A DNA stretch of 64,000 nt from the NCBI GenBank assembly GCA_002071085.1, contig MWEM01000010.1, positions 2,047-66,046 on the forward strand. The letters are read 5' to 3'. Made by a program: the position numbers and the translations under genes. Below are positions 5,593 to 63,410 of the stretch, in pieces; position 1 is the stretch's first letter, and each line of letters opens with the position of its first letter. The notes below the pieces were generated by a model. That model did not search any database, had not been told where the DNA came from, and worked only from the letters and a program-made list of their open reading frames with translations. Origin of the DNA: Thermotogota bacterium ADurb.Bin062. GTDB taxonomy: Bacteria > Thermotogota > Thermotogae > MWEM01.

Positions 5593-8500
5593 TTACAACC
5601 CGCGCCTCTCGAACTCACGCCAGGCGACGGCGTAATCGGTCTCGCGGTCGGCGAGGGTGAAAGGCGCGAAATAGCGCACCTCGCGTTCGAAGGGCCCGCC
5701 GGGCCGGGTATCGTCCTTCACCATCCTCGAACAGCTCTCACCGTCCTTCAGTTCCTGCAGGGCCTCCCACTCGGAGCGTTCCCGAAGCCCGACGCCGGTT
5801 AGCCCTTTGCTGTTCGTCCACACAATCCGACCCTTCCGATCATAGTAGGTGTCCTTCTCATACTGCCGCATCACAGGAAACTGGATCCGGTAGATGGAGA
5901 TCAGCTCCTCCAAGGTCAATCCCAGCGCCATCGCGGTGAGGACGTCGATTTCCACGAGCGCCTGGCGACGCGCGTAGTCGTAGCGCAACGCGTTGTGGCG
6001 CTGCCAGGTGGGGGTGAGGTTCCGGAAAAAATCCCGGTCGAGCCGCGGGTCCTCGCTCGTCCAGGTATCTTTCTGAAACCGGGGATCGAACAGTTCCTCC
6101 CACAACTCGGCATAAGGGGTCGTGAGACAGTTGAGGGTGAGGGCGCGTGGAAGCGCGTATAGAAAACGAGAGTCGTCTTCCAAATAGAACAGGTCATCGA
6201 CATTCCCGGTAGTAAAATCTTCTTTTCCGCTGGTTTTGACGAAAAAGTCACTGAGAAGGGAACAAGCCGGAACGAAAGCTTGAAGCAGGCGCCGCGGTTC
6301 CAAGAAAAAGGTAGATATCACGGTATGCACATGGGCTATATTTTTGGGTATCAACGCGGAGATGAAGGTTCTTTCTCCAAATTGGCTCAACCGCCTCCGA
6401 TGGATCATTCGGAAATAATCGGTCACAAGATCGGAACGGTTCCCCTGGTTAAGACTCCATTTCGCGGTCGGAATGCGGTTCTGGTAGAGCATTCTGTCTG
6501 GCGCCGGAACATAATTCGTTCTCGGCAGATAATCGTCGGGGAGTTCGGCGAGATCGAGAGGATCGTAATGACCCTTCTCTGTGCATATAGCCCTCGGCGT
6601 TTTGTAAAAAGGCGTTCCCACGTGAAAATGTGGGCCGGAAAGGATCAGTTCTTCCGCGGTCTTAGGAAAGATGGTCTCTCTTTTGATCGTGCCGTCCTTT
6701 TGGGCGTTGGTTTCATCCCACATTACAGTAGAGTGGTATTCGCCTTTGAGATCCCTCAGGCGATGCGGATAGGCGGCGAACTTCTTCAACACGCCGACGA
6801 TGGGTTGGGCGTGTACGGAGGGGAGTTTCGACTCCAAGGGGGGTGTCCCCTCCTCGTCGAAAAGTTGACTGAAGACCGTTAGCGCCCCTTCATCCACGTG
6901 CACGACCCTTAGATGATGACCTTTCAAGTTCCATTCATCCTGTTCGTTCTTGATTCCCTCAAGCGGTTCATCGCCTTGATGGTCGAAGGAATCATCGATC
7001 GTCTTTGGTAAAAATAGGTTGGAAAGACTGTCAAAAGATATCTCGTGAAAATTGGATTTGTAGATGTTAATCCCATATTTGACTCGGTGCCCAATTGGGA
7101 AAAGCATATATTGGTTTTGAAATTGAAAATGATACCGCAACCGCGGATAGAGCTCGCGGCGCAGCGCGCCGCCTTTCGCGTCGTCATACACCCCTTCCGG
7201 ATGGAGGAAGCCCTGGACGCCGTTTCGGTTCGCGAAGAGCCAGCTCTGCGGTAGAAAGCACTTGAACAGGTTCGACTGTGATCCTTGAAGGAGCGGGTAG
7301 TTCTGGACAGCGTTGAGGAAGCCCTTCGTCGCCTCCATCGTTTCATACTCCCGCACGTAGTCCTCGAGCAGCTCCGGCTGGCGCTCGAAACTGTCGTTCC
7401 GTAGTTTACTGACCTGATCGGCGGAGTATTTCCGGATCGCGAAGAGCGGTTCCGCGTCCGAGAGGATCCCGCCCTCCTCCCATCCCAGTTTGATCCAAGG
7501 GGGGTTCCCAAGGATGAGGTCGAAGCCTCCGCGCTCGTCGAAAACGTCGGCGAACTCCAGCTCCCAATGGAAAAAGGCGATCCGTCGCGCGACCTCGCGT
7601 ACCACGCGCAATGGCTCGAGCTTTTCGCAGAGCGCGTCCAAATCCACGAGGTCCAGGTCGGAAAAGAGCGTCTGCAACTGTTTTTCCGCGTCGTTCTCGA
7701 CGAACAGGGGTCGCTGCGCGGGCGCGGTCGGTATCAGATTCACTTCGAGGATGAGCGAGAGGTGCATCAGGAACTCCGAACGCGACGGCAACAGATCGGC
7801 CTTATCGATCGGCCAGAACCATAGCGCGCACCAATAGTCCATCGCTAACTTCAACCGGGCGTATGGGCCGGCGTTCTCCATCTTTTCGGTATGAAAGAGG
7901 CTCTCGTAGATCGCGTCCTTCTCTTTCGTCGTGTACGGACGGCGGCGCGCCTTCTCCTCGTGTCCAAAGATGGATATCGCGCTCTCGGTGAGCTCTTCGA
8001 CCTTTTTTCGCGCCTTCAGGTGTTTTTCCCAGAGGAGGTCGACCTGGTCGCTCAGCCGCTGCAACGTTTTGATCTCTTCCGCGTCGTAGGGTCGAGAGAA
8101 GTCTTTGTTCCACTCTTTGAACCGCTTGAGTTCTTCGGCTTTCAGTTTTTTGACGACCTTGTCCTCGTACGTCGCCATCGCAGGATCCGCGAGCAGGAAG
8201 TGATAGACGCTGCCCGCCGGTCTCGTCGTTTTCGGTTCCACGCGTTCGGGGGCGACGGTGTGCCACTGTTTCTCCTTCTTCTTCTCCCGAATCTGATCGG
8301 GACGGTAGACCTGTCGGCGCGCGCCGATCAGGGAATTGCCGTTCATCAGCTGCGTTCTGAACCACGGAACGTAGCCGCCCTTGTAGATCGTGTTCAGCCA
8401 GACGGAGACCTCCGCCAACTCCACGGCGATCGGGTTCAGGTCGATTCCGTAGACGTTCCGGTCTGACAGGCGCATCTTGACCTTCTGCTTTTCTTCCGCG

Positions 8501-10281
8501 TACCGGTCCACTGCGATCGTTTGCCCCGTCTCCCGCTGTTTCAGCTGTAAATAGGCTTCTGCGAGTTGCGTGACCGCTTCGTTGATGAAGGCGGCGCTGC
8601 CCATCGCGGGCTCGCAGATTTTGAGTTCGAGGATCTCGTCGGCGGTTTTGTCTTTCAACAGCTCTTTCAACGCGTATTTGACGAGGCATTGGGTGAGCGT
8701 TTCCGGCGTGTAGTACGAAGCGGACTTTTCTCGTTCCCTGCCCGCCAACCGGTAGATGAACGTGCCTTTCGGGTACAATTTCAGGCTGCCGTCGGGGTTG
8801 CGTACCCGCTCCGTTTCTTCGTACTCTTCGAGCCGCGAGGCGGGGACGAAATAGCCGACTTGCAGCTCATCCCACGATTCGCCTTTCGGCTGTACTTCGT
8901 AGAGGTCTTCCTCGGCGAAGAAGCCGCGGTAGCTCAGCAGCCCCTCGTAGACGGCGCCAAGCTGGTTGATCCCCAGGTGGGAGTAGGAAACGCGTCCGGC
9001 ACGCTCCCTTCCTCGCGGCCTCGTGATCGACATTTCGCGGATGACGTCGCGCAGCGTTTCGTTCCTAAAACGCGCGCGGTTTAAGAGGGGCGTTCTTTCC
9101 GGATCGAAGAGGTGGGACTGCAGCGGCGGAATCTCGAAGGCGTCCGCGCCGACGCCTTCCAAGCCGAGCGCCTCGGCGCGAGCGGTTTTTACCGTTCCGT
9201 TGCGTTTCGGATACCCTTCGTAGATCAACGAAAAGAGTTTTTTCAACGACGTGTCGAGGAAATAGCCGTTTCGACTTTCCTCGCCCTCCAACCGAACCTT
9301 GTCGACGAGGTCGCGGAGGCTCTCGAAGCTGTATCCCTTCATATAAACGTCCGATTGGACCGGCGCGTATTCCAGCTCTTTCCGTGATTCGATGAAAAGG
9401 ATGAAAAGGATCCGGTACATAAAGCGCAGGCACTCGAGGGTCAGCTGCTCCGCGAGGTCGGTATCGTACACCTTCACCTTCTGCCGCTCTTTCATATCCC
9501 GCACCGCGTCGTTGCCCAACCATTCGATGCATCGGCGCAGCGCGTATTTCAAGTCTTCGGACACGGATATCGCGTGTTTGTGGGAGGTGTCGTCGAAACG
9601 GTCCAGCAGGGGTTCCCCATCGAATGGGGCGAGGCTTGACTTGTCCAGCAAAACGGCCATCGCTTGGAAGGTCGTGTCCTCGCGCCGCGCGTAGATTTCA
9701 TCCAAAATGAACTGGAAGAACCGCTTTTCGTTCCACTTGTACCGGTCGAGCAGCGCGATCTCGCGCATCGAGCAGAGGATGACCCAACGGGGCGGCTCCG
9801 GCGCGTTGAAGATGTACCGGTTCAACGCCTCTTCGTAGTCGCAATCGGGGAAGGCCTCCGCAACGCTTTCGAGCGCGCTGCCGTTATCGGTTTCATCTGT
9901 TTCTATCAGCAAGAGGTAGGGCGCGCCGTCGGGTTTTCGCAGGATTTGCCATACAGGTACCGTGATCCCGTCGTTTCCGATGAACTCTTCATCCGCCTCC
10001 GAGAATAGAAAACCCAGGGCGCTGAACAGCTCTTTCAGAAACGAGCGCCGTATTTCACGCCGTCGGTGTTCGTCGCGCTCGCGCGTGTACTCGTCGAGTC
10101 GGTTGAAGTACGCCCTACCCAGGGACTTGATCTTGCGCCAAGGCTCCTTCTCTTCCGACTCCTGGGCCTGCGCCTTCCACATCGACAGCGCTTCTCGGAT
10201 GTTTTCCTCGAAAATCGTGCTCAGGTAGTGCGCGGTGTAGTATTCGTTCACGTTGTGGATACCGGACAGGTCGATCGCCAT
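5593..10281 (-). CDS. Large gamma-class N6-adenine DNA methyltransferase (PglX / DrmMI / Eco57I-like), 1562 aa.
   Basis: AdoMet motif I ICEPAMGSAAF (~8592-8618) precedes catalytic motif IV GNPPW (~7497-7511). N-terminus MAIDLSGIHNVNEYYTAHYLSTIFEE resembles PglX/DrmMI-type enzymes. RBS GAGGGGAG 4 nt upstream of the ATG. The upstream SNF2 gene's TGA stop lies inside this RBS. Confidence 0.8.
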   Translation of the reverse strand: MAIDLSGIHNVNEYYTAHYLSTIFEENIREALSMWKAQAQESEEKEPWRKIKSLGRAYFNRLDEYTRERDEHRRREIRRSFLKELFSALGFLFSEADEEFIGNDGITVPVWQILRKPDGAPYLLLIETDETDNGSALESVAEAFPDCDYEEALNRYIFNAPEPPRWVILCSMREIALLDRYKWNEKRFFQFILDEIYARREDTTFQAMAVLLDKSSLAPFDGEPLLDRFDDTSHKHAISVSEDLKYALRRCIEWLGNDAVRDMKERQKVKVYDTDLAEQLTLECLRFMYRILFILFIESRKELEYAPVQSDVYMKGYSFESLRDLVDKVRLEGEESRNGYFLDTSLKKLFSLIYEGYPKRNGTVKTARAEALGLEGVGADAFEIPPLQSHLFDPERTPLLNRARFRNETLRDVIREMSITRPRGRERAGRVSYSHLGINQLGAVYEGLLSYRGFFAEEDLYEVQPKGESWDELQVGYFVPASRLEEYEETERVRNPDGSLKLYPKGTFIYRLAGREREKSASYYTPETLTQCLVKYALKELLKDKTADEILELKICEPAMGSAAFINEAVTQLAEAYLQLKQRETGQTIAVDRYAEEKQKVKMRLSDRNVYGIDLNPIAVELAEVSVWLNTIYKGGYVPWFRTQLMNGNSLIGARRQVYRPDQIREKKKEKQWHTVAPERVEPKTTRPAGSVYHFLLADPAMATYEDKVVKKLKAEELKRFKEWNKDFSRPYDAEEIKTLQRLSDQVDLLWEKHLKARKKVEELTESAISIFGHEEKARRRPYTTKEKDAIYESLFHTEKMENAGPYARLKLAMDYWCALWFWPIDKADLLPSRSEFLMHLSLILEVNLIPTAPAQRPLFVENDAEKQLQTLFSDLDLVDLDALCEKLEPLRVVREVARRIAFFHWELEFADVFDERGGFDLILGNPPWIKLGWEEGGILSDAEPLFAIRKYSADQVSKLRNDSFERQPELLEDYVREYETMEATKGFLNAVQNYPLLQGSQSNLFKCFLPQSWLFANRNGVQGFLHPEGVYDDAKGGALRRELYPRLRYHFQFQNQYMLFPIGHRVKYGINIYKSNFHEISFDSLSNLFLPKTIDDSFDHQGDEPLEGIKNEQDEWNLKGHHLRVVHVDEGALTVFSQLFDEEGTPPLESKLPSVHAQPIVGVLKKFAAYPHRLRDLKGEYHSTVMWDETNAQKDGTIKRETIFPKTAEELILSGPHFHVGTPFYKTPRAICTEKGHYDPLDLAELPDDYLPRTNYVPAPDRMLYQNRIPTAKWSLNQGNRSDLVTDYFRMIHRRRLSQFGERTFISALIPKNIAHVHTVISTFFLEPRRLLQAFVPACSLLSDFFVKTSGKEDFTTGNVDDLFYLEDDSRFLYALPRALTLNCLTTPYAELWEELFDPRFQKDTWTSEDPRLDRDFFRNLTPTWQRHNALRYDYARRQALVEIDVLTAMALGLTLEELISIYRIQFPVMRQYEKDTYYDRKGRIVWTNSKGLTGVGLRERSEWEALQELKDGESCSRMVKDDTRPGGPFEREVRYFAPFTLADRETDYAVAWREFERRGL

Positions 10282-10290
10282 AAGCTCCCC

Positions 10291-12504
10291 TCATTCGCTC
10301 AGGAGAAGGGCAACCACGCGGATATAGGGGTTGTCTTTCTCGAGCTTCATCGTGTTTACGAGCCAATGTTGAAATTCATTGAATATCTCATCAATCCGAC
10401 GCTTTTCTATCTCGTAGCGCTGGGCGTTCCTTCCGTCAGATCTGTCGTAACTCTGAAGCAGGTCGTCGTGTTTCTTTCGCAGCTCTTTAAGCTTCGCGAT
10501 TTCTTCATCGAGTTTCGGGGTCATCGTCTCTTCGAACTCCTCTTGCTCCGCTTTCATTTTTTCCTTTGCCAGGCCAATCGCCGTCGGCAGTAACTTAGCG
10601 GCCCAATCCGAAACTTCTGCGTTCCTCGAGGCCTGGTTCGGAAGCGCGCCTTTGAATACGTCTGAACGGAGAAAATCCTCCGGGGACAAAAACTCGGCGG
10701 GGTTATCTTCAACGAAGCGGATGACGAACCATCGGTCGATAACCGGCTCGGACTGTCGATTCGGAATCAACCCGGAGATGATGAAGACGGCGGTCCGCTT
10801 CTCCGCAAAGGGGACGAAAAGTACCGGCGCCTCCTGCCTTCCGAAAAACAGCCCCGCTTTATCGTTCATCCAATCGATGATGGGGTGAAGCGGCCAGAGG
10901 TAGTGCGAGCGCGGCCACGTGTCTTGCGCCTTCTGTCGGCTTTCTTTGATCTCACGCATCAGCGCTTTCTTGTCCGTCGTCAGGCGCAACCAGTCGTCGC
11001 TCGGAAACGCCTCCTCGGGTATCTGCGGCTCCAGCGACCGCTTCATCGATTCGGACATCCGGATTTCCATCACGTCGACTCGTGGGGCTTCCAGAGGTAT
11101 GGTTTCCCTGTTAGAGATCGTTTCCAAGAGGGTTTTCAGATAACTCGTTTCGTCAAACAGGGTCACGGGATCGGCCTTTTCGACGTTCGTCGCCTTCGCG
11201 GCTTCGTCGGGAAGGTTCCAACCCGCGTTCATCATCGCCAAAAACGGGTTTTCGGGAGCCGATAGCAGGCGCTCGAAAGCATTCACGCTGAGGCTCTTTT
11301 CGAAAACGCGGGCTACCGTCCGTTCTTCCTCTTCCACATCGTACCGCCCCAAGAGGGAGGCGGGGTCGCCGATATTCTTTTCCGCCTGCTCTTCCTTATC
11401 GATGAGTATTTCCAGGATGCGCATATCCCCGCGAATGCGCTCGTTTTTCGCTTTGGTCACCAGATAGCGGATGTCCGGCGTTTTTTCTTGGCCGTACCGG
11501 TCGATCCGGCCGTTCCGCTGTTGGAACACCATCAGTGACCACGGGATGTCGAAATGGATCAGGCGATGGCATAGAAAATGGAGGTTGATGCCTTCGGACG
11601 CCACGTCGGAGGCGATGAGGAGACGAACGGGGGAGTCGGTCGCGCCGAACTCATCGACCGCCTGCTGTTGGTCCACATCGCTCATACCGCCGTAAAGACA
11701 GGAGAGTTGGCCATCGCTCAGCCGGAGGTCCTCTTTCAGGCGTTTGGCCAAAAACCTCATCGTCTCGATTCGTTCCGTGAAGATGACGAGGCGGTCGTCC
11801 GGGCGCTCGCGATTCCAACCGTATTCGGGGCTTTGGAGCAGGCGGACCAGAAGGCGGTATCGTGAAAAATGCTCGGGTGTGATTTTTTTCAAATGGTCGA
11901 TGAGGGTCTCTAGAGCGCGGATATCGGAGGCGCTCTCGGACCGCCCCTCTTTTTTCAGTCTATTGATGCGCGCCTGCGCCGTTTTTTCGCAGGCGACCGG
12001 TGAGGAGAAGAGGGACTTTTCCAGCAGCGTTTTAAACAGCATGGTCTCCCCGCGAGCGGGGTCGATCCAGGTGAGATTGAGAGTCTCGAAAAAGTCGTAG
12101 AACGCTTCTTCTAACGGGGACGCCTCGCACGTTTCCCGACTGATCACACGTTCCTTGAAATGGGCGGAAACCTGGTTCTGCACATCCTTTTTGAATCTGC
12201 GGAAGACCATCCCTTGGATGTCCTCGCGCCGGTAGTCCTCCTCGTTGGCGATGGCGGTCGGCTCCAACATATTCATCAAGGAGGCGAAACTCTGCGGGCG
12301 GCCATCGTGAGGAGTCGCCGACAGGAGGATGAGCGTGTCCGAGCGTTTGGAGAGCAATTCGGCGAGGCGGGACCGTTGCGCTTGCGTTTTGCCACGTCGC
12401 GCGACGTTGTGCGCTTCGTCGATCACGATGATGTCCCACCGGGTTTTTTCGAGCAGCGTTCGGTACTCGCGGTCCATCTTCAGGGTGTCGATCGAAATGA
12501 TCAC
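10291..12504 (-). CDS. SNF2-family helicase (DrmD-like), C-terminal fragment (motifs II-VI). The gene is interrupted by a frameshift.
   Basis: DEAH box WDIIVIDEAHNV, LLSATPHDG, HELICc-type region ...LIASDVASEGINLH...QRNGRIDRYGQ. The frame stays open and SNF2-like (IQRIRANIPTNHNPFYYFDKVIISIDTL) upstream of the annotated GTG, as far as the T5 tract at 12615-12619. Confidence 0.75.
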   Translation of the reverse strand: MIISIDTLKMDREYRTLLEKTRWDIIVIDEAHNVARRGKTQAQRSRLAELLSKRSDTLILLSATPHDGRPQSFASLMNMLEPTAIANEEDYRREDIQGMVFRRFKKDVQNQVSAHFKERVISRETCEASPLEEAFYDFFETLNLTWIDPARGETMLFKTLLEKSLFSSPVACEKTAQARINRLKKEGRSESASDIRALETLIDHLKKITPEHFSRYRLLVRLLQSPEYGWNRERPDDRLVIFTERIETMRFLAKRLKEDLRLSDGQLSCLYGGMSDVDQQQAVDEFGATDSPVRLLIASDVASEGINLHFLCHRLIHFDIPWSLMVFQQRNGRIDRYGQEKTPDIRYLVTKAKNERIRGDMRILEILIDKEEQAEKNIGDPASLLGRYDVEEEERTVARVFEKSLSVNAFERLLSAPENPFLAMMNAGWNLPDEAAKATNVEKADPVTLFDETSYLKTLLETISNRETIPLEAPRVDVMEIRMSESMKRSLEPQIPEEAFPSDDWLRLTTDKKALMREIKESRQKAQDTWPRSHYLWPLHPIIDWMNDKAGLFFGRQEAPVLFVPFAEKRTAVFIISGLIPNRQSEPVIDRWFVIRFVEDNPAEFLSPEDFLRSDVFKGALPNQASRNAEVSDWAAKLLPTAIGLAKEKMKAEQEEFEETMTPKLDEEIAKLKELRKKHDDLLQSYDRSDGRNAQRYEIEKRRIDEIFNEFQHWLVNTMKLEKDNPYIRVVALLLSE

Positions 12505-13118
12505 CTTATCGAAATAGTAAAATGGGTTATGGTTCGTCGGAATGTTGGCGCGAATACGTTGGATCCCTCGGGAGTCCAGCCGTTTGAGCGGAATGGTGAA
12601 CCGGTCCAGAGTTCTTTTTGGAGCTGGAGCATCATACTTTTCAGCGCGACGACGAGGATACGTTTCCCTTTACCGCGCGCGATCAGCTCGCTCATCAACA
12701 CGCCGGCTTCGAGCGTTTTCCCGAGGCCGACACCGTCTGCCAGCAGAATGCGTTGACGGGGCCGGGCTAAGGCGCGCTGGGCGGGCTCCAGTTGGAAATC
12801 GATCACATTCATCGCCGCTTTGTGCCCGATGCGCAAGACGTTTCCCGGCGGGGTTCGTCGACGCAGGAGGCTCTCGATGTAGAGCCGCGACTTCCTAAAC
12901 ATCGGCGACCGGTCGACAACGAACTGGGTATCAGCCGGATCGATCACGCGTATCTCCTCGAGATCGGACAGGAACGCGGCCTCCTGCCCACGCACAAAAT
13001 CGGAAACGCCCGTCACGCTTAAAATGTATTTCCTATCCGCGTTGTAATCGGCCCGCCGAACTACCCACTCCTCACCGCGTACCTGTATCCGCATACCGGG
13101 CGCGTATATCTGTGTCAT
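12501..13118 (-). CDS. SNF2-family helicase (DrmD-like), N-terminal fragment (motifs I-Ia). Reading is lost after ...LQLQKELWT at an A5/T5 homopolymer.
   Basis: Walker A LADGVGLGKTLEAG, motif Ia ILVVALKSMMLQLQKELW. Adding one base in the T5 run (12615-12619, plus strand) joins this frame to the downstream fragment and gives a continuous SNF2 protein. Confidence 0.7.
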   Translation of the reverse strand: MTQIYAPGMRIQVRGEEWVVRRADYNADRKYILSVTGVSDFVRGQEAAFLSDLEEIRVIDPADTQFVVDRSPMFRKSRLYIESLLRRRTPPGNVLRIGHKAAMNVIDFQLEPAQRALARPRQRILLADGVGLGKTLEAGVLMSELIARGKGKRILVVALKSMMLQLQKELWTGSPFRSNGWTPEGSNVFAPTFRRTITHFTISIR

Positions 13119-13170: not shown

Positions 13171-15186
13171 CTATACCTTCCAGAAAGAGAAGAGCATGAA
13201 CACGATCAACGCCACCCATTGGCTCGCGAATACCATCAATTGAAAGAAGTAGGTGCGATCCATCTTTTCTTTGACGCGCTTCTCAAGGGCAGTTAGGCGG
13301 TCATCGAAGGCCTGTTGTTTCTCGGCCGTTTTCTTTTCCAGTTCATCGAGCGCGGTCAGAGCGCTCTCGAACGCGGCGGTTTTTTCGGTCAGGGTTGCGA
13401 TCGACTCGCTGTAATGGCCTTTCAGCAGCTTAGGTAGGGCTTCAACGGTTTTCTGCGTTAAAACCGCGAGGTTTCGGGAATCCTGGAGAGAGGCGTGGAC
13501 ATTTTCATCCATCTCTCTCAGGGCATCCAAAGTCTCCCGATTTCCTTCGCCAAACGACGCAATGAGGTTGCCAAGCTTGCGGTCAACCGTTGACACGAAT
13601 GCGGGATCCAGCCGTGATAAACCGGTTTTCTCATCAACGAGCGAGCGCAGGCGTGCGCCCAAGTCGCCGGTCGAATCGGCGAGGCGCTTCACCAAGTCAG
13701 AAAACTCGGCGTGCTCCGCGCGGTCGTGCTCCCGTTGATTTGCGGCCTCTTCGGCTAATTGCCGTATCGCGGTTTGAATTCCACCGCTCTCAGTATTGAT
13801 TTTGCTTGTGTTTTCGAGCAGTTCGGTGTATGTCGAGCTGATCAAATCGGCGAGTTCTTTCGTTAAGCTGGACAGCCCGGCGATTTCCGCGCGGCCGCGC
13901 TCCCGTTGATTTGTGGCATCTTCGGCTAACTGCCGTATCGCGGTTTGAATTCCACCGCTCTCTTCATAGATTTTACGCGTGTTTTCCAACAGTTCGAGCT
14001 GCGCTACGCCTGCCGATTCGGCAAGATCTTTCACCAGGCCGGACAACTCAGTGAGTTTTGCCAAGTCGTGCTCCCGTTGACTCGCGGTCTCCTCAGCTGC
14101 TTGCCGTATCGCGAGTTGAATTTCACCGCTCTCTTCGCTGATTTTGCTTGTTTTTTCGAGCGACTCGGTTTGTCTTGAGCTGGTCGATGCGGCAAGTTCC
14201 TTAACCAATCCGGCTAACTCGGCTACTTCTGTTCGATTCTGTTCCCATTGACTCGCGACCTCTTCGGATACTTTCCGTATCGCGGTTCGTATCACACCGC
14301 TTTCTTCATTGATTCTTCTTGAGTTTTCAAGCAATTCAGTGTGTGTGGAACTGATCAAATCCGCGAGTTCCTTCGCCAAGTCGGATAGCTCGGCGAGATT
14401 CGCGCAGCTGTGTTCTCGCTGTTTCGCGGCTTCCTCGGTTGCTTCGCGAATAGCGGTATGAAGCTTCTCGCTTTCCGTATTGCCCCTTCGGGCATTCTCG
14501 AGCATTTCCGCTTGCGTGGCGCCAAATGATTCCGCGAAGCCCTTCACCAAGCCGGACAGCCCGGCGATTTCCGCGCGATCGTGTTCACGTTGATAAGCGG
14601 CGCCTTCGGCTAACTGCCGTATCGCGGTTTGAATTCCACCGCTCTCTTCATAGATTTTACGCGTGTTTTCCAACAGTTCGAGCTGCGCTACGCCTGCCGA
14701 TTCGGCGAGATCTTTCACCAAGCCGGACAACTCAGCGAGTTTTGCCAAGTCGTGTTCCCGTTGATCAGTGGCCTCCTCAGCCGCTTGCCGTATCGCGGTT
14801 TGAATTCCACCGCTCTCTTCACTGATTTTGCGCGAGTTTTCAAGCAATTCAGTGTGTGTGGAACTGATCAAATCCGCGAGTTCCTTTGCCAAGTCGGCAA
14901 GCTCGGCGATATTCGCGCAGCTGCGCTCGCGCTGTTCGGCTGCGCCTTCGGTTGCTTTTTGTAACGCAGCGTGAAGTTCGCCACTTTCCGTATGGATTCT
15001 GCGCGTGTTTTCCAATAGTTCGGCGTACTTGGCGTTGAGCTCTCGGACGGACAGCGTGAACTCGTTCAAAACGGCAACGAGCTCGTTATCCGCGTTTCCC
15101 AGCGAAAAACCCTCCTCTAGCCTTCTTTCTTCGTTTCCATCGATATCATTCATTCGCGCCCTCCTTCGAGCATTTCTTCTATCCAT
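13171..15186 (-). CDS. Tail-anchored coiled-coil protein built of ~45-aa tandem repeats with a C-terminal transmembrane helix. The start is probably the ATG at 15153.
   Basis: Repetitive low-complexity sequence (...LAELSGLVKDLAESAGVAQLELLENTRKIYEESGGIQTAIRQLAE... repeated more than 6 times). C-terminal hydrophobic FFQLMVFASQWVALIVFMLFSFWKV. RBS GAAGGAGGG lies 5 nt before the ATG at 15153 and inside the 3' end of the upstream helicase gene. Confidence 0.7.
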   Translation of the reverse strand: MDRRNARRRARMNDIDGNEERRLEEGFSLGNADNELVAVLNEFTLSVRELNAKYAELLENTRRIHTESGELHAALQKATEGAAEQRERSCANIAELADLAKELADLISSTHTELLENSRKISEESGGIQTAIRQAAEEATDQREHDLAKLAELSGLVKDLAESAGVAQLELLENTRKIYEESGGIQTAIRQLAEGAAYQREHDRAEIAGLSGLVKGFAESFGATQAEMLENARRGNTESEKLHTAIREATEEAAKQREHSCANLAELSDLAKELADLISSTHTELLENSRRINEESGVIRTAIRKVSEEVASQWEQNRTEVAELAGLVKELAASTSSRQTESLEKTSKISEESGEIQLAIRQAAEETASQREHDLAKLTELSGLVKDLAESAGVAQLELLENTRKIYEESGGIQTAIRQLAEDATNQRERGRAEIAGLSSLTKELADLISSTYTELLENTSKINTESGGIQTAIRQLAEEAANQREHDRAEHAEFSDLVKRLADSTGDLGARLRSLVDEKTGLSRLDPAFVSTVDRKLGNLIASFGEGNRETLDALREMDENVHASLQDSRNLAVLTQKTVEALPKLLKGHYSESIATLTEKTAAFESALTALDELEKKTAEKQQAFDDRLTALEKRVKEKMDRTYFFQLMVFASQWVALIVFMLFSFWKV
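13748..14960. repeat. Intragenic tandem direct repeats (~135-bp unit with a 684-bp higher-order period) inside the coiled-coil gene. 13920-14032 and 14604-14716 are 100% identical over 113 bp.
   Basis: Direct comparison of the sequence lines. ttcggctaactgccgtatcgcggtttgaattccaccgctctcttcatagattttacgcgtgttttccaacagttcgagctgcgctacgcctgccgattcggc occurs twice. The sub-motif ctgccgtatcgcggtttgaattccaccgctctc recurs about 6 times. Confidence 0.9.
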
Positions 15187-18100
15187 TCTACCGCATATTT
15201 CCTCTTTAGTATCTCATGATACCTTTGGTTGGTGTAGTTACGCAAACAGCCGTAACAAGAGGAATCCCCCTCTTCGCCCCCACATAGGCAACCCTTTAAA
15301 AAGGACTCGGTAAGCTTGAGGATTCCCTCGAACGCTCCATCTTCCATACACCAGCGTATGTGACCGGCGCCCCCCGCGACGTTGTCGAACAGAAGCAAAT
15401 TCGGATACGACCTGCCCTCCACGGGAAAGACGATTCCATCGAGGTCGTTCCGGTCTATGTCCAGGAACAGGCTAACCCCCTCTAAAAGCGCGTAGAGGAT
15501 AGAAAGCCAGTATTCTTTCTCATCGTTTGTCCGTTTATTTTCCGGAGGGGTGATCTCCAATATTTCCGTTTTAAACTGGTAGCCGAGCGCTTTTCTACGG
15601 GCGATCTTTCCTGGGCACCTCTTGCCTTGAGGGTTATTGTGCTCTCTTTCCAGCGTCTTTTTGGCGTCGGAGTAACCGCAAGCCAAACAAACGTTGAACC
15701 CCCGCGGGCCGCCGGGATTGATGGTCACCAAATTGCCCAACATCGTTTTCAGGTGAACCGGATACCTCAGCAGGAGGGTTTTTTCTTCGATGGTGTACTC
15801 TTCTTTCCCGAGCAGGCAGCGCGTTTGAGAGAGCTGTGTCTTCTTTATCACACCCGCTTTCTCGGGCTGTCCGGAGATGAACCCAAACTCGGGGAAAAGG
15901 TAATCGCCAACGTTTAACTGACTGCCGCAAATCTTGCACGTCTTGGTTGTCGAGCGCTCCTTGATCGACACCTTCGAAAACCCGCATTTTCGGCAGAAGG
16001 CATAACTCTCCTCGATCAACGCCTTGTCGGGCACTTTCTTGATATACTGCGTCGACCACTTCTGCTTGTTCGCGTAGACGGGATTGTCCGGCGCATATTC
16101 CCAAAGGGCGGTTTTCATATCCCGCGAGAGCTCCAAGTCGTCCATCTTTTCGTCGAAGGGCGCCATCAATTCTATGACGTCGACCGGAAACCCGTAGCGA
16201 GGTAGAATCCCTTTTCCGGCCAGGTATTGCATGAGATTACGGCCTAAAAGGGTTTGCACCTTTCTATGGAGCGTGTCCGCTTTTCTGAAGGTTCTCTTTT
16301 TGGTCGCCGCATCGATCAAGTCCGTCAAGACCCGTATGTCTTCTTTCAATTCTTTGCCGATGTGGTAGAGAGAAGCGTGCGTAACCGGAGAATCGGAAAA
16401 CAGGAGGTACGCCCAGGGCAAAAATTGTTTTTGGCGCAGCTCGTGTTCGGTAGCAGGAATGGTCTCTCGTATCGTTTTGTCCAGCTCCTCTTGATGCGTC
16501 GCGACGAAGTGTTCGAAGCGCGCGACCCCTTCGAGGTCATCGTCCGTTTCCGGAAAAAAGAAGGCCTTCACGTCTTTGAAATGGTTCGGATACTGACGCC
16601 AATACTCGGCCAATGCGATCGCGGCCATATGACGATAGCGTATTTTCTCGTTTTCCAGCACAAAGGAAGGCGGGGCAATCTCGCCTTTAATCATTTTTTC
16701 CGGGTCGCTAAAGAAGTAACGGTCGTGAGGCCTTCGTAACGCGTAGGTGAGAATGAAAGCCGGATTGGAGGTTCTCCTGCCGGCCCGCCCTGCCCTTTGC
16801 AGGTAGTTCGACGCGGTTGGGGGCACGTTTTTGAGAAAGATCGTGTCCAAATCCCCGACGTCCACGCCTAACTCGAAGGTCGTCGAGCAGCTGAGGATCT
16901 GTATTTTTTTATGATAGAAGTCTTCTTGAAACTCCCGCGCTTTTTCATATTTAAGCTGGGCTGTGTGCTCTTCCACTCGAAGCGGGGAGAGCTCGAGCGT
17001 GCGGTACAAGTCTCGGTAGTGGTTAGGGCCTAACGCCGAAAAGTTCGTCTCCCTCACCGTCCCTTGACATCCATAAGAAGGACAGACCCCCCGTACCGCA
17101 AAAAAGAAAAGTTCTTTACACCGATCACATTGGTAAAGTTTCATATCCGGAGTCAGGAGCGGCGAAAGGATTTCCAGGGCGTCTATCTTCAATCGCTTCC
17201 CGCTTTGGTTGCGCTTTGTAAAAGAGGTTTCGAAACAGTCCCTCCAATCCGGATGGTCGAATTCTTTCCAAATCCATTGAAGTAACTCCGGGACCTCCTC
17301 CTTTCTCGCTTTTGGAAATAGGCGGCGTAAATAATCGGAGCGCGCGTTTTCGAAACGATAGGGGACCCAACTTTTCACGCCTGCTTGGGTTTGCGCCGAC
17401 AGCGTCATCAACGTTTTCAAATTCCTCGGCGCGAAAAACTCGTGTTCGGGTTCTATGTCCGGTAAGTAGGTCAAAGCGCCGCACTTTCTGAAACTGGAAA
17501 GTAAGAGTTGATACAGGCTGTGGGCCTCTTCCGGAGTCAAATTCCAAGGCGCGTTCAGGAGCGGGCTTCGCTTTTCGAGAGACTCGTAGAGTCCTTTGGA
17601 AAGAGGGACCTTGAAGCCCAGGAGCCCGGCGCCTTCGAGACCCGTGCGCCGATCGTAACTCATCGCTTCGTATTGTGTCCATAGGTAAGCGGTCGTCTCT
17701 ATTGTCTGCTTATCCATTTGGTAGTCTTCCGGGAGGCGTTTTTTGGCGAATTCCGCCAGGTTTTTGACGATCCAATCGTTCTCGATGGCCTTTTCTCGAT
17801 AGGTTTCGAGCGTGTTCACCAAAATGCGCCTCCAGAAGATCCTGTCATAACTCTCTTGAAGGTACGGCGCGAAGTACGCCGCGCCTTGGCGACTGTCCGA
17901 AAAGACGATAAAGCCGTTTTGCCGCTTCCTTTCTTCGGGAGACAGGCCGCTATACAGGTTCTGAAAGAGGGCCGTGGCGATAACGCTTCCCGAGGCGTCC
18001 GCCCCGTCTAAAAACCGCCAAAGAACGGGGGTTAGACTTGATTGCGCGCCGCAATTCAAGCACTTGTTCACGCGTCCTTCCTTCGATTTTGCCTTTTTTG

Positions 18101-19946
18101 CGGAAAGAAGAGCCACCCCGCAGTCGCAGGCGTTCCCGATCAAGTTTTCTTGAGAGACCTTCCCACATCGGGGACAGATTTGGAAAAGGTTGCGAGTATC
18201 CCGTTCTTCGGATGCCCCATCTTCTTCATCCTCATTTTCGGCAACCGCTCTGTCGGGTTCTATGAGGAGATACCAGTCGAGAAATTCGTCCCCTTCGGTT
18301 TGATCGTATTCGGTTTGTCTCAAAATCCCCGTGTCCTTGTCAACGGTCCCTGTCAAATAGACCGCCCCGCAGTTTTTACAGGACCCGATCTCGAAAAACA
18401 ACCGCTCTGTGGAAGAGTCGTCCATCTTCTCTATGGTTTTCCGTTCGAGTTGGAGGGTTTTATCCGGGTAGAAAGAGACGAAAGCGCCTTCCAAGGCCTT
18501 GAGAAATAGATGGTACTTCATAGAGGACAAGGAGGTTTGCGGAAAGAGGTGGCACACGAGGTTTATCAGTAGGACCAAATGGAAGGACAGTACTTCACGT
18601 TGCGCGTCTTTTGGAAAGAGGATTTCCGTTAGTTTGGAAAACTCACAAGGTCCGCTTTCCAATATTCGATTGACCTCTTTCACCTTCTCGTCGTTTTCGA
18701 CAATCCTCAGAAACGTGTCCGAGAGGTCGAAAGGCGCATTCGGTCCTTCCGCCCTTTTCAATGTCGGCGATCCGTCGGGATTGTGAGCGCGGTTTCCGAT
18801 GGTCTCCCCTATCCACCGGCTCAATTTCTCAGTCACCAAGGAGTTGGCTTCTCCTTTAAAATAGGCGATCAGATCGGTATAGAACTCCGGTGGGATAGTG
18901 ATTGGCCCGGCTTTGACTTGGAGCTCCCTCGGCGTGTAGGGCAATTTTTCGCCGACGATGATATCCTGACGCTCCGGATCGTTTTTGTCCCATTCGACGC
19001 GAGTGTGAAAAAGGTTTTGTGCGAATTGCGCGAGCTTCGAACACGCGTCCGGGGAATAGCCGAGAGAGGCGCTCGTGCCGAAGTATTGCAGGGCTTGGCC
19101 TTGCGCGCTTCGCCCGATACGGTGAGCGAGACGCCGCAGCAGCAACGCGGTTTCGATCCCTTTCGCGCCGCCGTAGGTGTGCACTTCGTCCAATATGAGG
19201 AACTTCCAAAAACGCGCGTGTTCTCCGTCGAAGAAAACGCAATCGTCCGGTCTCAGGAGCAGGTATTCGAGCATCGCGTAGTTGGTGATTAACAGGTGCG
19301 GCGGCGAGCCACGCATCCGAGCTCTACTGATGAGCTCGTTGGGTAAGGGGTCGTGCGCGAAAAGCCTCACGAATCGGCTCAGCGCGCTCTTTTCCTCTTG
19401 TTCGGTTTCCCCGGTATAGATGCCGAAGGTCACTTCCGGTATCCTTTTCAGAATACTGCGCAAACGAAGTAATTGATCGTTTGCCAGCGCGTTCATCGGA
19501 TACAGTAAAAGGGCTCTGACTCCGGGCGTCAACTTGGATTCTTCGATCTGCCTGAAAAGGTAATTCAAAACCGGGATCAGGAAGGATTCCGTTTTCCCGC
19601 TTCCCGTACCGGCGGAGACGATGAAGCTTTTTTTCTGCACAACCGCCTTTCTCACCGCCATTTCTTGATGCGCGTATAACGGTCGATCGGAAGGCAGCGT
19701 TTCTTGGTCGATCCTAAGGAAGATCTCGGAGAGGATTCCCTCCCGCACGAGCTCCCCGATCGATTTCCCAGTTCTATAGCGGGACAAACGTTCGATGTAG
19801 GGCCCTTTGCATAGCGCGTTTTCTTTTTCGATTTCTTCTTGGAATTTACCGTGTAGTTCCGGGTCGGAGAGGTGGAAGGTCGTCAGGAGATAACTACGGT
19901 ACTTTTCCAAGACGTCTTCGGTCATTCTTATCGGATTAATCGGCAC
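15150..19946 (-). CDS. DEAD/DEAH-box helicase fused to a C-terminal DUF1998 domain (DruE / DrmA-DrmB / YprA-MrfA family), 1598 aa.
   Basis: LYAHQEMAV, Walker A SAGTGSGKTESF, LLLYPMNALANDQ, DEVH box LILDEVHTY, GTSASL, motif VI LQRAGRAGRR (~16770-16800). DUF1998 signature VCLACGYS...CPGK...LLLFDNVAGGAGHI...CLCGG...CYGCL (15170-15800). GTG start with GGAGG 7 nt upstream. The gene overlaps the upstream gene by 11 nt. Confidence 0.85.
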   Translation of the reverse strand: MPINPIRMTEDVLEKYRSYLLTTFHLSDPELHGKFQEEIEKENALCKGPYIERLSRYRTGKSIGELVREGILSEIFLRIDQETLPSDRPLYAHQEMAVRKAVVQKKSFIVSAGTGSGKTESFLIPVLNYLFRQIEESKLTPGVRALLLYPMNALANDQLLRLRSILKRIPEVTFGIYTGETEQEEKSALSRFVRLFAHDPLPNELISRARMRGSPPHLLITNYAMLEYLLLRPDDCVFFDGEHARFWKFLILDEVHTYGGAKGIETALLLRRLAHRIGRSAQGQALQYFGTSASLGYSPDACSKLAQFAQNLFHTRVEWDKNDPERQDIIVGEKLPYTPRELQVKAGPITIPPEFYTDLIAYFKGEANSLVTEKLSRWIGETIGNRAHNPDGSPTLKRAEGPNAPFDLSDTFLRIVENDEKVKEVNRILESGPCEFSKLTEILFPKDAQREVLSFHLVLLINLVCHLFPQTSLSSMKYHLFLKALEGAFVSFYPDKTLQLERKTIEKMDDSSTERLFFEIGSCKNCGAVYLTGTVDKDTGILRQTEYDQTEGDEFLDWYLLIEPDRAVAENEDEEDGASEERDTRNLFQICPRCGKVSQENLIGNACDCGVALLSAKKAKSKEGRVNKCLNCGAQSSLTPVLWRFLDGADASGSVIATALFQNLYSGLSPEERKRQNGFIVFSDSRQGAAYFAPYLQESYDRIFWRRILVNTLETYREKAIENDWIVKNLAEFAKKRLPEDYQMDKQTIETTAYLWTQYEAMSYDRRTGLEGAGLLGFKVPLSKGLYESLEKRSPLLNAPWNLTPEEAHSLYQLLLSSFRKCGALTYLPDIEPEHEFFAPRNLKTLMTLSAQTQAGVKSWVPYRFENARSDYLRRLFPKARKEEVPELLQWIWKEFDHPDWRDCFETSFTKRNQSGKRLKIDALEILSPLLTPDMKLYQCDRCKELFFFAVRGVCPSYGCQGTVRETNFSALGPNHYRDLYRTLELSPLRVEEHTAQLKYEKAREFQEDFYHKKIQILSCSTTFELGVDVGDLDTIFLKNVPPTASNYLQRAGRAGRRTSNPAFILTYALRRPHDRYFFSDPEKMIKGEIAPPSFVLENEKIRYRHMAAIALAEYWRQYPNHFKDVKAFFFPETDDDLEGVARFEHFVATHQEELDKTIRETIPATEHELRQKQFLPWAYLLFSDSPVTHASLYHIGKELKEDIRVLTDLIDAATKKRTFRKADTLHRKVQTLLGRNLMQYLAGKGILPRYGFPVDVIELMAPFDEKMDDLELSRDMKTALWEYAPDNPVYANKQKWSTQYIKKVPDKALIEESYAFCRKCGFSKVSIKERSTTKTCKICGSQLNVGDYLFPEFGFISGQPEKAGVIKKTQLSQTRCLLGKEEYTIEEKTLLLRYPVHLKTMLGNLVTINPGGPRGFNVCLACGYSDAKKTLEREHNNPQGKRCPGKIARRKALGYQFKTEILEITPPENKRTNDEKEYWLSILYALLEGVSLFLDIDRNDLDGIVFPVEGRSYPNLLLFDNVAGGAGHIRWCMEDGAFEGILKLTESFLKGCLCGGEEGDSSCYGCLRNYTNQRYHEILKRKYAVEWIEEMLEGGRE

Positions 19947-22900
19947 GGGTCAACCTCCGGAATGCGAAGTATACCCTTTCTACGAGGATATCTTCGCGGC
20001 GATGTTTTTCTATCCAGTAGAGGAGTTTCTCGTCCACGTCATAATAGGCGCCGTCCCCTTCTTTGTCTATGAGAAACGGAAGGGTTTGATGATCTTCGTT
20101 AATGAAAAAGCGGACCGGGTTCGTATTCAGCCAATATTTTCTATAACCCTTGTCATCCAACCAGACGATATCGCCTTCGTAGGGCTCTCCCTCCTCAATC
20201 TTATCCGTGGGCCTGATATTCCGGATGACGCATTTTGGTCCGGCCAGGGCGTATTCTCGGTCTTGCTCATCGGTGACCTTGAGGATCTCCAAGCCCGCAT
20301 CCTTTGCAAATATATCATCTTTTGTGAAGGCAAGTGAAACATCGGGTTCGTGGAGACCGTGAAATTCCCGCGCGACCCGGTTACCAACAACCCATTCGAC
20401 GGTGAAAGGGCCGGAAGGAAATGCGCGCGTTTGAACCTTAAAACTGTACTCGCTCCGCCCAGCGTCAAGAAAGGCTTCGAAGTGTTTATCACCCTCAGTG
20501 GAAAGGCGCAAGCGCAGTCCGGAGGGGTTGTCTTCACGAGACCAGCGGCAATGGACGTGAGTCACCTGCGCGTCGGCATCTTCTTGGAGCGCGACTTCGG
20601 CATCCGCGAAGGGGACGCGAAAGGAAAAGGTTGCGATCGGTGGTGTCTCGGCGTATCGAAGCCCCCGTTCGTAGATAGAAAAAGATTGCTCGGCGGTCTC
20701 GCTGGCGCGTATGTTGTCGAAAAAAGGCCGCATGTCGACGCTTAATCGATCCTTCTTCACGGAGCAACGAGTGATTTGCCCCGTTTGATCGTGTCGGCAT
20801 TCGAACTGTTTTCCCCTCAAGTCGTACGGGAGTCGGAACTCTTTTTTAAGGGGATAGCCGTAGAAGATCGGGGAGTACTCGGATAGGGATTCTGAGGTGT
20901 CTTCATCGACGAAGGGCCTTTCGAATTCGCAGGAGAACGTTAATCCATCCGAGCCGGAGGGGTTGAGCGTCAGAACGGCTTGAACCGTTTGAACCCCGGG
21001 GTCTATACGACAACGGATCTCCATGCCCCCCTCTTCCGACTGGATTTCGGAAGGATCGAGCGCGGGAAAAGAAAAATGGATTTCGTCCTCCGCCTTTATT
21101 TCCAAGCGCCCCGGCGCGTGGAGGGACCTATCCTCCGAAGACCAGCGGAATCTAAACCGCGGCAGCACCCAGAAGACCATATCGATCGGAAGCCTTTTGA
21201 CCCCGAAGATAGAGATGCGATACCGACCATAAGGGGAATCGAAAAATTCCGCGGGGCATACCTCCATAGACTCGCTCGGGCTATCGCTTTCCGCGGGGTT
21301 GTTGGCGACTTGAAAGGTTGAAACGCGTGAAGGGCCTGATTCGAGAACAACCTCCATTTTCCAGGCGCCCGCATCGCCGGTGGCCGGAGGCATCCGTATC
21401 GTCGGGCAACGGAAATAGACGTTCTCTCCACGCGCCGTGACCCCTTCGACAGGACTTTCGCTGAGCTTTCCATAGAAACCGGCCCGATAAAAAGCGAGAC
21501 TTCCACCGGTCGGGCTTCTGATTTGGAAACAGTCCGTATCCGACAGATCGAGAGCGGCGTAGTCAAAATTCGGGGCTCCATACCATCGGGTTCTGTCTGA
21601 GACCGCTTCGGCCGGTGTGATTTCGTTCTCGCCGGACAGAATGAGGTAGAGGTAGTCGGTCGCATACTCACGCTTCTTCAACGCCTCCCCGTTCTCGTCG
21701 AAGACCAGTAACGGGTACTCCTCACAGAGCTGTGGTTTTATGGAAAATTCGCGGATGGGCTCTTTGCTGTTCATCAATCTGTTCACTTTAAAGGCGCGGA
21801 TTTCTAGTGTACCGAAAAACGGTGAAATTTCGCACCGTTCCCTCTGGGTTTCTATTGAGCCGCCCTGATTAAAAAGCGAACATTCCCTGACAAAGACCTC
21901 TCGGTTTGCTTTCGCTTCCACGACGGACAGAAAGATTTTTTCTTGTTCATCAATCTCATTGAGAACGATTGGGGGGATAACGAGCCACAGCCGCTCCAAA
22001 TCGAGGTCCAACTCAAGGTAGGGAGCGCTTTGCCTGGGTGTCTGAACTATGTGAGTCCGATGTTCTATTTCGCTTCTTATGCCTTTTCTCAGCCTTTTTG
22101 AGAGTAAGGGCCACCGGTCAGCTTCATCGAGAAGCGCCTTGTCGAGGCCTTCGAGCGCGCGGATATACTCGATGGTCGACCTTATAAAAATATGCGCATC
22201 GTTTCCGGATTGGGAGAGGAAACACCGTGTTCCCTCGCACAAGAACCTATTCCTTGTAGCATCCCCAGATTCTCCGAAAGGAGGTTCTGCTGAATCTCCA
22301 AAAGGAGGTTCTGCGGGAATCTCTTGGTCTGTGAATAGAGAATCCGCGAAATCGAAGAGCGCCGTTTCTGAGAGGTTCAAAGCATCGGGGTAGTGGTTTT
22401 TTATGAAATGGTACAGGGCCTTCACGACATCCCAACTGAGAGGTCCCGCGTGCTCTTCCTTCCATTCGCGTACCACCTCGAGCTTCGCGCGAAGGTCATC
22501 CAAAGAAATCGGCTTCCCCGGAGAGAGAAGGTTTCGCACGCGGTTGATCCGGCTGACGGCTTCTTTCAATACGACATATCGGTCGATCGCTCTTTGATAG
22601 GTGTCTTTCAATCGAACGAGGCGCGTCCGATGTCTGTCTTCTTCGACGAACGGCGAGTCCGCTAAAAAGACGACCAATTCTTTCTTCAACTGGTACCGGG
22701 AGAGCTCGCGCGCTTTTTCCGCCCAGCGATTCGGCAATTCCTCTTCGATCACGCGCATCATCATAGGGTTATCAAGAAATTCGGTGTAATAGGAGGTCGC
22801 CTCCGGCGCCTCTCTGTACAACATAATTAAAGGCCAGTAAGCCAATGATTTTTCCAGAGACTTACGTAACTGGGCGGTTTTCTCTCTACCCGCGATTACT

Positions 22901-24095: not shown

Positions 24096-24147
24096 CGCAG
24101 GTTCTGTGCTATAATCTTTCCAAACACAAACAAAGCGGGTGAAAGCA

Positions 24148-25440: not shown

Positions 25441-25790
25441 GTTGGCAGGTCTTTCAAAGAGCAAAACCGGGGTTCTCAAGGAGGGCAAAATGAGCCAATA
25501 CGAGGTTTATCGCGGGGGTAAGTGATATTTTCGACCCCGCGATCCGCTCCATTTCTCTCTAAAAAGGGTATCGCGCCCTCGCAAAAAGAAAGGGCGCTTA
25601 CGCCGCGATGCCTGTTTAAGGTTATCGCGGGGTAAGTGATTTTTACGACCTCGCGATCCCCGCTTTCTCCCTTCTAAAAAGCGTATCGCGCCGTCGCGAA
25701 AAGAAGAAGCGCTTACGCCGCGATGCGTGTTCTCTCCGTGCCCTCTGTGTTCTCTGTGCGAACCCTTTTTTCCTTCCCCGCGCGCTCCCA
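25424..25790. repeat. Intergenic repeat-module cluster between the two AAA ATPase paralogs. It supplies the stop codon of paralog 1.
   Basis: gccaacttttaagttggc hairpin at 25427-25447, two copies of gttatcgcggggtaagtgatttttacgacc(c/t)cgcgatc, two copies of cgtatcgcgcc..cgcaaaaagaa..gcgcttacgccgcgatg, and ccctctgtgttctctgtgcgaaccc. Confidence 0.8.
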
Positions 25791-25845
25791 GCCTTCCGCT
25801 CTATGCTATAATCTTAATCAAACACAAATAAAGCGGGTGAAAGCG

Positions 25846-63241: not shown

Positions 63242-63351
63242 CCGAAGTTTTCTCCTTTGTTTTGTGTTTATCGAAAAACGCCGCTTTTTGTTAAGGAATC
63301 GGTCTTGAGTTTTCGTATCATTATACCATAGCCTACGGCCCACACAGGATG

Positions 63352-63378: not shown

Positions 63379-63410
63379 TCAGAGACGCGCAACAAAAAGG
63401 AGGGAGGAAG

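Follow-up and report, generated by a model that had tools for sequence, protein, structure and literature searches.

What is a gene for a long, repetitive and membrane-anchored protein doing in the middle of an operon of defence helicases? The question is posed by a 64,000-nucleotide stretch of contig MWEM01000010.1 from Thermotogota bacterium ADurb.Bin062 (the window in what follows), in which a minus-strand gene, here called the repeat gene, lies between druE, the helicase gene of a Druantia III-like system, and armA of an ARMADA type II system. The initial annotation of this DNA had taken the surroundings for a novel DISARM/Druantia hybrid operon, but they correspond to the published pairing of Druantia III with ARMADA II (PMC12458937), into which the repeat gene has been inserted. 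The pairing of both systems is thus already known, and what is new is an orphan gene for a membrane-anchored rod within a Druantia III-ARMADA II island.

The repeat gene and its coupling to druE

The gene and its elements are listed here with coordinates in base pairs (bp) of the window and in amino acids (aa) of the product.

13171..15153, minus strand: coding sequence of the tail-anchored helical repeat protein, 660 aa (open reading frame list, translation, exact public match, allele dN/dS)
13174..13254, minus strand: predicted C-terminal transmembrane tail anchor, aa 634-660 (Kyte-Doolittle scan, alignment)
13255..13698, minus strand: non-repeat helical region, aa 486-633, the last ~110 residues of which (from about aa 523) align with a 494-aa homologue
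13699..15066, minus strand: eight-unit array, 171 bp / 57 aa per unit, aa 30-485 (Tandem Repeats Finder, repeat search, register and identity matrices)
13912..14139, minus strand: unit 6 region, downstream copy of a near-identical duplication (lag-684 scan; 103-bp core 13920-14022)
14596..14823, minus strand: unit 2 region, upstream copy of the near-identical duplication (lag-684 scan; 103-bp core 14604-14706)
15159..15167, minus strand: Shine-Dalgarno-like GAAGGAGGG, inside the last druE codons (read directly from the sequence)

The open reading frame (ORF) extends over 13171-15186, and translation from its first ATG would give 671 aa. The preferred start is the ATG at 15153-15151 (660 aa), because GGAGG (15164-15160, within GAAGGAGGG) ends 6 nucleotides (nt) before it, because it overlaps the TGA stop of druE (15152-15150) as ATGA, and because it is the start in most public gene calls; the repeat gene's own stop codon occupies 13171-13173. 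No promoter-like or terminator-like site was found in a search of the minus strand between druE and armA. Translational coupling to the upstream DUF1998 helicase gene, i.e. druE, had already been proposed in the initial annotation, and the ATGA overlap together with the GGAGG inside the last druE codons upholds the proposal: on these signals, translation of the repeat gene is coupled to that of druE.

The product matches a public protein exactly (P0003; NCBI HOD90079.1, 'hypothetical protein, Thermotogota bacterium') that derives from metagenome-assembled genomes (MAGs). Its 660-aa sequence is recorded identically on 64 contigs, and at the six places read in the metagenome assemblies of the Joint Genome Institute (JGI) and the European Nucleotide Archive (ENA) the gene is 100% identical at the DNA level. 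Alleles differ chiefly at synonymous sites, with a ratio of nonsynonymous to synonymous rates (dN/dS) of about 0.27 and a range of 0.2-0.3, and the reading frame is open across 2 kb in all of them. By these measures the repeat gene is real and under purifying selection, without sign of diversifying selection; positive selection acting on the repeats was considered and is ruled out by the same dN/dS values.

Architecture of the repeat protein

The protein is composed of 14% Glu, 13% Ala and 13% Leu and has a net charge of -43. A Kyte-Doolittle scan places a single hydrophobic helix at the C-terminus (aa 634-660), its core followed by K-V alone, and finds neither another transmembrane (TM) segment nor an N-terminal signal-like segment; the protein would therefore be tail-anchored, with its bulk facing the cytoplasm. 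About 610 residues ahead of the TM helix are helical in AlphaFold2 (AF2) models.

The initial annotation had described the protein as almost entirely made of repeats of about 45 aa, perfect at the DNA level. Tandem Repeats Finder (period 171, 6.9 copies, 67% matches) and autocorrelation of the protein, with peaks at 57, 114, 171 and 228, give an actual period of 57 aa or 171 bp, with GLVKELADSISSTQTELLENTRKINEESGGIQTAIRQAAEEAASQREHDRAELAELS as the consensus of the unit, and the repeats make up 69% of the protein (aa 30-485), the last 175 aa being unique. Perfection was likewise overstated: DNA identity between units lies mostly at 51-80%, unit 0 being the most divergent of the eight, and the exception is the pair of unit 2 and unit 6, 684 bp apart, at 93%. 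Blocks of 113 bp had been reported as identical at this spacing; the lag of 684 is correct, but exact identity extends for no more than 103 bp (13920-14022 = 14604-14706), and the flanks, said to exceed 90% identity, consist of 57-nt blocks that are 86-98% identical across about 230 bp. At lag 513 there is a further exact stretch of 53 bp. This spread of identities with its one outlying pair therefore indicates an old, diverged array on which recent exchange is overlaid.

The hydrophobicity spectrum of the protein peaks at 3.56 residues, which equals 57/16 and corresponds to eight heptads plus one skip residue per unit. A four-unit fragment is modelled by AF2 as a two-helix antiparallel hairpin with about 100-120 residues in each helix (mean predicted local distance difference test score, pLDDT, 75.5), the helices passing unbroken through the ESGG and LSGL motifs. 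We read the repeat region as a long, pairing-prone helix, i.e. a predicted coiled-coil rod, to which each 57-aa unit would add about 8.5 nm, and which as a whole would reach up to about 70-90 nm, if it forms one continuous coiled coil. The tail-anchored coiled coil of the initial annotation thus retains its single C-terminal TM helix, its helicity and its heptad-like period, and is weakened by the composition of the heptad core, to which we return below.

Searches of the repeat protein and its 494-aa homologue against Pfam, PADLOC, PHROGs and NCBIfam gave sub-threshold noise alone. Matches to Ribosomal_L29, GAPES4, a Cas12a fragment and KduD were rejected as compositional, and a signalling domain of the kind found in methyl-accepting chemotaxis proteins (MCPs) was ruled out, there being no MCPsignal match in Pfam. 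A sequence search of the PDB with the repeat protein returned no match, and tblastn against the window and a longer public contig (L093) found no similarity that would point to an origin of the gene from its neighbours.

Length variation and exchange within the array

All of the allele data come from short-read assemblies, in which many contigs break inside the repeat gene and many public calls are partial. At least three public sequences are 603 aa long, i.e. 660 minus 57, and so are one unit shorter at seven units, which bears out the earlier suggestion of a recombining array with length variation. The allele of strain L002 is identical to that of the window up to about codon 320, differs from it with a proportion of synonymous differences (pS) of 0.26 over codons 321-485 and 0.13 over codons 486-632, carries one clean in-frame gap of 171 bp, and is identical to the window in the TM region. 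DruE of the same strain is 99.4% identical to that of the window, and its ArmA and ArmB 96.7%; given this drop, a haplotype breakpoint is placed inside the repeat array. When L001 and L002 are both compared with the window, pS is 0.10-0.26 past the breakpoint and 0.005-0.017 before it. As an observation on the haplotypes themselves, the two strains are near-identical to the window in DruE and codons 1-320 and diverge from about codon 321 through armA and armB, codons ~321-485 of the repeat gene lying at 13699-14190.

Exchange between units is seen in P0012, an eight-unit protein whose differences from the window protein are G184D, A186T, Y187N and H191R alone, all within unit 2 (14580-14610). 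All four changes are to the residues of unit 6, four units downstream, and P0012 thus carries a discrete gene-conversion tract in which unit 6 was copied into unit 2, in agreement with the conversion postulated by the initial annotation. Most other substitutions in the repeat region likewise match a paralogous position, and the array, as far as these alleles speak, evolves via unequal crossing-over and gene conversion under purifying selection.

Relatives of the repeat gene

A word-indexed search covering 5.8 billion proteins returned two clusters, both of them the repeat gene itself. An exhaustive phmmer search of 1.84 billion representatives returned four matches, namely the gene's own cluster, the 494-aa protein P0149, and two marginal matches (P0150 and P0151, E ~5e-4) that were rejected on inspection as unrelated repeat or low-complexity proteins. 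A scan of IMG/VR found no relative of the repeat protein, and a profile of the C-terminal 175 aa was uninformative, since it returned one 113-aa fragment and missed known members.

P0149 is thus the sole other convincing homologue among the representatives. It is encoded at L009:8849-10333 and also on L010-L012, four metagenome contigs on which its gene shares 8 nt with the end of the gene for a 70%-identical DruE, and ArmA comes next; a helicase-adjacent position in relatives, which the initial annotation had suggested looking for, is therefore what the one homologue displays, in the same slot. The two proteins are 41% identical over the N-terminal ~75 aa and 51% over the C-terminal 141 aa (BLASTP, aa 523-659 of the window protein), and the TM helix with its juxtamembrane segment is the most conserved part of the family, with 29 of 33 residues identical (KEKMDRTY.FQLMVFASQWV.LIVF.LF.FWK). 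Their middles are filled differently: the window protein has 57 aa x 8, whereas P0149 has one copy of the 57-aa unit together with a duplication of its own, ~100 aa x 2.

Other DruE loci were surveyed in 80 species-level genomes carrying DruE relatives at 30-38% identity. The genes downstream of DruE in these genomes are mixed (UvrD/NERD, DUF2397, DUF6361, Abi_2 and housekeeping genes), and five tail-anchor-like ORFs found elsewhere in the 80 loci are unlike the repeat protein in composition or position.

The Druantia III and ARMADA II island

The genes surrounding the repeat gene are the following.

19936..23484, minus strand: DruH-position gene, 1182 aa (1168 aa from a later start), overlapping the start of druE
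15150..19946, minus strand: druE, compact YprA-family helicase, 1598 aa (Pfam DEAD, Helicase_C and MZB/DUF1998; no PLD match)
10291..13118, minus strand: armA, SNF2/BrxHII-like helicase (PADLOC DrmD 3.8e-65, BrxHII 2.3e-44)
5593..10281, minus strand: armB, PglX/type IIG-like N6-adenine methyltransferase, 1562 aa (Pfam Eco57I/N6_Mtase)
1..5493, minus strand: armC, another helicase of the YprA family, full length 2097 aa (Pfam and PADLOC matches of the 1831 aa that the window encodes)

From 23484 to the window start all genes are co-directional, with overlaps or gaps of at most 100 nt, and their order is DruH-position gene, druE, repeat gene, armA, armB and armC, with armD present in longer public contigs. 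DruE matches the PADLOC models DruE1 (1.4e-170) and DruE3 (8.6e-154). DruH of Druantia III is a protein of about 1100 aa without annotated domains that is encoded directly upstream of druE, and the window, like that system, has a DruE-family YprA helicase, preceded here in the DruH position by a protein of ~1170 aa with no recognisable domain. The compact DruE and the lack of a PLD match are shared with subtype III-B in particular (10.64898/2026.05.13.724758). The window differs from published Druantia III systems in that these consist of two genes, whereas both lineages with the repeat gene have a third, which overlaps the stop of druE, and in that its DruH-position protein falls outside the PADLOC DruH models. 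Indeed, that protein has no match in Pfam, PADLOC (including the DruH model), PHROGs, NCBIfam or the PDB, and its weak phmmer matches (2e-8 to 8e-4) are to the ORF that precedes druE in 14 other loci; it is probably a divergent DruH, an assignment that is weakly supported. Considered by itself, it resembles a very divergent DruH family for III-B-like systems, being weakly similar to ORFs upstream of other compact DruE genes.

Downstream of the repeat gene, the ARMADA II genes encode the SNF2/BrxHII-like protein, the PglX-like methyltransferase, the YprA helicase and the UvrD-like helicase of that system, co-directional with Druantia III. The published description names four genes, ArmA-D; it further reports a strict gene order for ARMADA type II, to which the genes after the repeat gene conform, and co-occurrence and synergy of Druantia III and ARMADA II in E. 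coli (PMC12458937). Loss of 1 bp near 12602 (ACCCGG to ACCGG) breaks the armA of the window into two frames of 205 and 737 aa. L003, L004, L006 and L008 have the broken form too, and L002, L005 and L007 an intact gene of 942 aa, so that the frameshift reads as a segregating inactivating polymorphism of ARMADA; phase variation was ruled out, the indel lying in a CCC/CC run and not in a long homopolymer. The armB product matches REase_MTase_IIG (5e-273) and DrmMI in PADLOC, with a weak PglX match, and the armC product has DEAD, Helicase_C, MZB and DruE-like matches, its C-terminal end lying beyond the window start. In L093 and L094, where armC is full-length, it is followed by a 721-aa UvrD-like armD (UvrD-helicase/UvrD_C). 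Taken together, these assignments describe the island as a Druantia III-B-like pair and a four-gene ARMADA type II system, with the repeat gene as an extra at their junction.

Among the 80 surveyed genomes, ArmA/ArmB homologues were observed within 10 kb of a compact DruE in three unrelated ones (L044, L064 and L078; Actinomycetota), oriented with DruE in L064 and convergently in L044 and L078. The association of Druantia III with ARMADA therefore reaches beyond E. coli and Thermotogota.

The island is set among ordinary chromosomal genes of uncultured Thermotogota from metagenomes, the rest of the window containing AddAB, an MCP, RtcB and two-component genes; no tRNA genes were found in the window. 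At the upstream edge of the island two plus-strand ORFs of 433 and 594 aa (24139-25440 and 25723-27507) point away from it, without a match in Pfam or PADLOC, and related contigs have a 430-aa gene call at the position matching this region. Outside the island lie an apparently solitary Dam-like D12-class N6-adenine methyltransferase gene (55824-56936, plus strand) and, adjoining it, a pair of genes for an AddA/AddB-like helicase-nuclease (56949-63508, minus strand) that belongs to the ordinary chromosome.

Comparison with known coiled-coil proteins

That no described Druantia component resembles the repeat protein was correctly anticipated, and the same holds for ARMADA. The initial annotation looked to Zorya for an analogy. 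The cytoplasmic tail of ZorA extends for ~70 nm, and every Zorya subtype has a long tail, from which the authors infer that length matters (PMC11946911). With ZorA the repeat protein shares a membrane anchor, a very long cytoplasmic alpha-helical tail (here predicted) and a place beside Druantia III/ARMADA II-type systems; it differs in having a single C-terminal TM helix and no MotA/ExbB-like multi-pass N-terminal domain, and shows no sequence similarity. The analogy therefore survives as a functional likeness, the defining ZorA features that were examined being absent except for the long helical tail, and neither the repeat protein nor its neighbours match ZorA or ZorB in PADLOC.

CnuB carries an McrB-like GTPase domain. 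A precedent for a coiled-coil protein within a DruE operon is the CnuB-like protein of Druantia II and type IV CoCoNuT, an extended coiled coil for which pairing with a coiled-coil insertion of the helicase has been proposed (PMC12458937). The repeat protein differs from it in having no enzymatic domain in Pfam, and the CnuB-like protein described there is not reported as membrane-anchored (PMC12458937). Long heptad-like helical segments are also shared with SMC, Rad50 and SbcC, but the repeat protein has no Walker A/B head and no SMC_N or AAA match in Pfam or NCBIfam. In IMG, P0003 and P0005 bear the name 'DNA repair exonuclease SbcCD ATPase subunit', although no ATPase domain is detectable; seemingly the name was given for a coiled-coil composition. 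The repeat protein lacks the domains that define the ZorA, SMC/SbcC and CnuB-like families and, as judged from its sequence, is therefore placed outside them.

A possible role and its alternatives

The explanation that we favour, tentatively and as a possibility that falls somewhat short of probable, is that the repeat protein tethers the helicase machinery to the membrane, or provides a scaffold for it there, with a length that can be tuned. The rod would hold or recruit otherwise soluble helicases of Druantia, ARMADA or both to the membrane's inner face, the site of phage DNA entry, and might match, with a single protein, the membrane-anchored arm contributed by Zorya II in the Zorya II-Druantia III-ARMADA II islands of E. 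coli. Two points of background lead to this suggestion. No direct binding takes place between DruH and DruE, which seem to be bridged by other proteins (10.64898/2026.05.13.724758), on which their communication would rely, and Druantia III and ARMADA II of E. coli travel with Zorya II, whose ZorA has the long tail described above. The family itself also fits a spacer in which length matters more than sequence, since its ends, and especially the TM helix, are conserved and its middle is filled by unrelated duplications; the identity of the TM and juxtamembrane segment is, on this comparison, far in excess of what a passive anchor would need. A bolder version, in which one tail-anchored variable-repeat protein replaces the role of ZorAB as a link from membrane to YprA helicase, with a length tuned by recombination, and constitutes a third type of Druantia-class component, is doubtful.

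Several observations weigh against a tether of this kind. Any contact of the repeat protein with DruE, DruH or the Arm proteins is hypothetical, and position and coupling, the sole links to defence, come from two related, uncultured lineages. The family is confined to these lineages, so that linkage is inseparable from shared ancestry, there being no phylogenetically independent replicate. In the 80 other DruE loci, phmmer found no homologue of the repeat protein, and in none of the 80 is a tail-anchored protein encoded by the next gene after druE; with no match in these loci or in IMG/VR, the PDB, PHROGs or NCBIfam, the repeat gene is therefore lineage-specific and not a general part of Druantia or ARMADA. 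In L064, the sole co-directional case in the sample, ArmA and then ArmB directly follow DruE, and neither system therefore needs the repeat gene; indeed, both flanking systems work elsewhere without it. In the window armA is frameshifted and the repeat gene retained, which would link it at most to Druantia rather than ARMADA. ZorAB is dispensable in the Bas37 branch of the Druantia-Zorya synergy. The DruE-mNeonGreen fusion of E. coli is cytosolic (10.64898/2026.05.13.724758). As for the rod, the heptad core positions of the consensus are often polar, and single-sequence AF2 of the full-length protein, all-helical as it is, reaches a pLDDT of 52, i.e. low confidence. The role in defence asserted by the initial annotation was thus overstated, and is better described as plausible on the basis of position and coupling in the two lineages.

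The gene could instead be an autonomous single-gene module at the junction, concerned with abortive infection or superinfection exclusion or representing other cargo, co-transcribed with its neighbours and functionally separate from them. Defence islands do gather unrelated modules, as the heterogeneous genes after DruE elsewhere illustrate, Druantia III and ARMADA II are complete without it, and the conserved TM helix, with its polar Q, S, Q and W, might oligomerise into a lesion in the membrane. A plain pore or exclusion function, however, would not require a 600-residue cytoplasmic rod; stoichiometric co-translation is indicated by the ATGA overlap and by the 8 nt that the homologue shares with its druE, no separate promoter-like site is present in the interval searched, and no family in PADLOC, PHROGs or Pfam is matched, which leaves such a module somewhat unlikely. 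The open frame over 2 kb in all alleles, with an indel that is in frame, the low dN/dS, the position kept next to a DruE now diverged to 70% identity and the nearly invariant TM region all speak against a non-defence passenger, whether an envelope or cytoskeletal coiled coil or a gene drifting to loss, in which the repeats would be a by-product of slippage and recombination. We regard this as rather unlikely, even though the family is an orphan without a domain, coiled-coil repeat proteins expand readily, and the adjoining armA is already a pseudogene in the window strain.

It is less probable still that the protein is a negative regulator or 'safety catch', its acidic rod acting as a membrane decoy or DNA mimic that would sequester the single-stranded DNA (ssDNA)-binding DruH and DruE until infection. 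Such restraint would be useful, given that exposure of host ssDNA (mitomycin C) makes DruE toxic and that the partners of DruH and DruE dissociate upon infection (10.64898/2026.05.13.724758), and the repeat protein, with its Glu content and strong negative charge, is translated right after DruE; yet an acidic composition is common among coiled coils and unspecific, there is no likeness to known DNA mimics and not one match in Pfam or the PDB, and other Druantia III systems function without such a partner. That the repeat structure or its copy number is an artefact of short-read metagenome assembly, finally, is extremely improbable. Assemblers do struggle at this gene, as the partial public calls and the contigs ending inside it attest, and the 603-aa alleles stem from short-read MAGs; but the 660-aa sequence recurs identically on 64 contigs and at DNA level in the six places read, its units differ by 20-49% in DNA and so are resolvable, and the 603-aa alleles bear substitutions of their own in units 5-6 and are not collapsed copies.

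Significance

With the annotation of the locus corrected to a Druantia III-B-like system and ARMADA II, the repeat gene can be set beside two questions about these defences. Communication between DruH and DruE is puzzling, as they seemingly use bridging proteins in place of direct binding, and the reason why Druantia III often travels with the membrane-anchored Zorya II and with ARMADA II is a standing question. A membrane rod coupled to DruE would offer a natural handle on whether membrane proximity or a scaffold matters for helicase-based defences, and the alleles of seven and eight units are natural length mutants of that rod.

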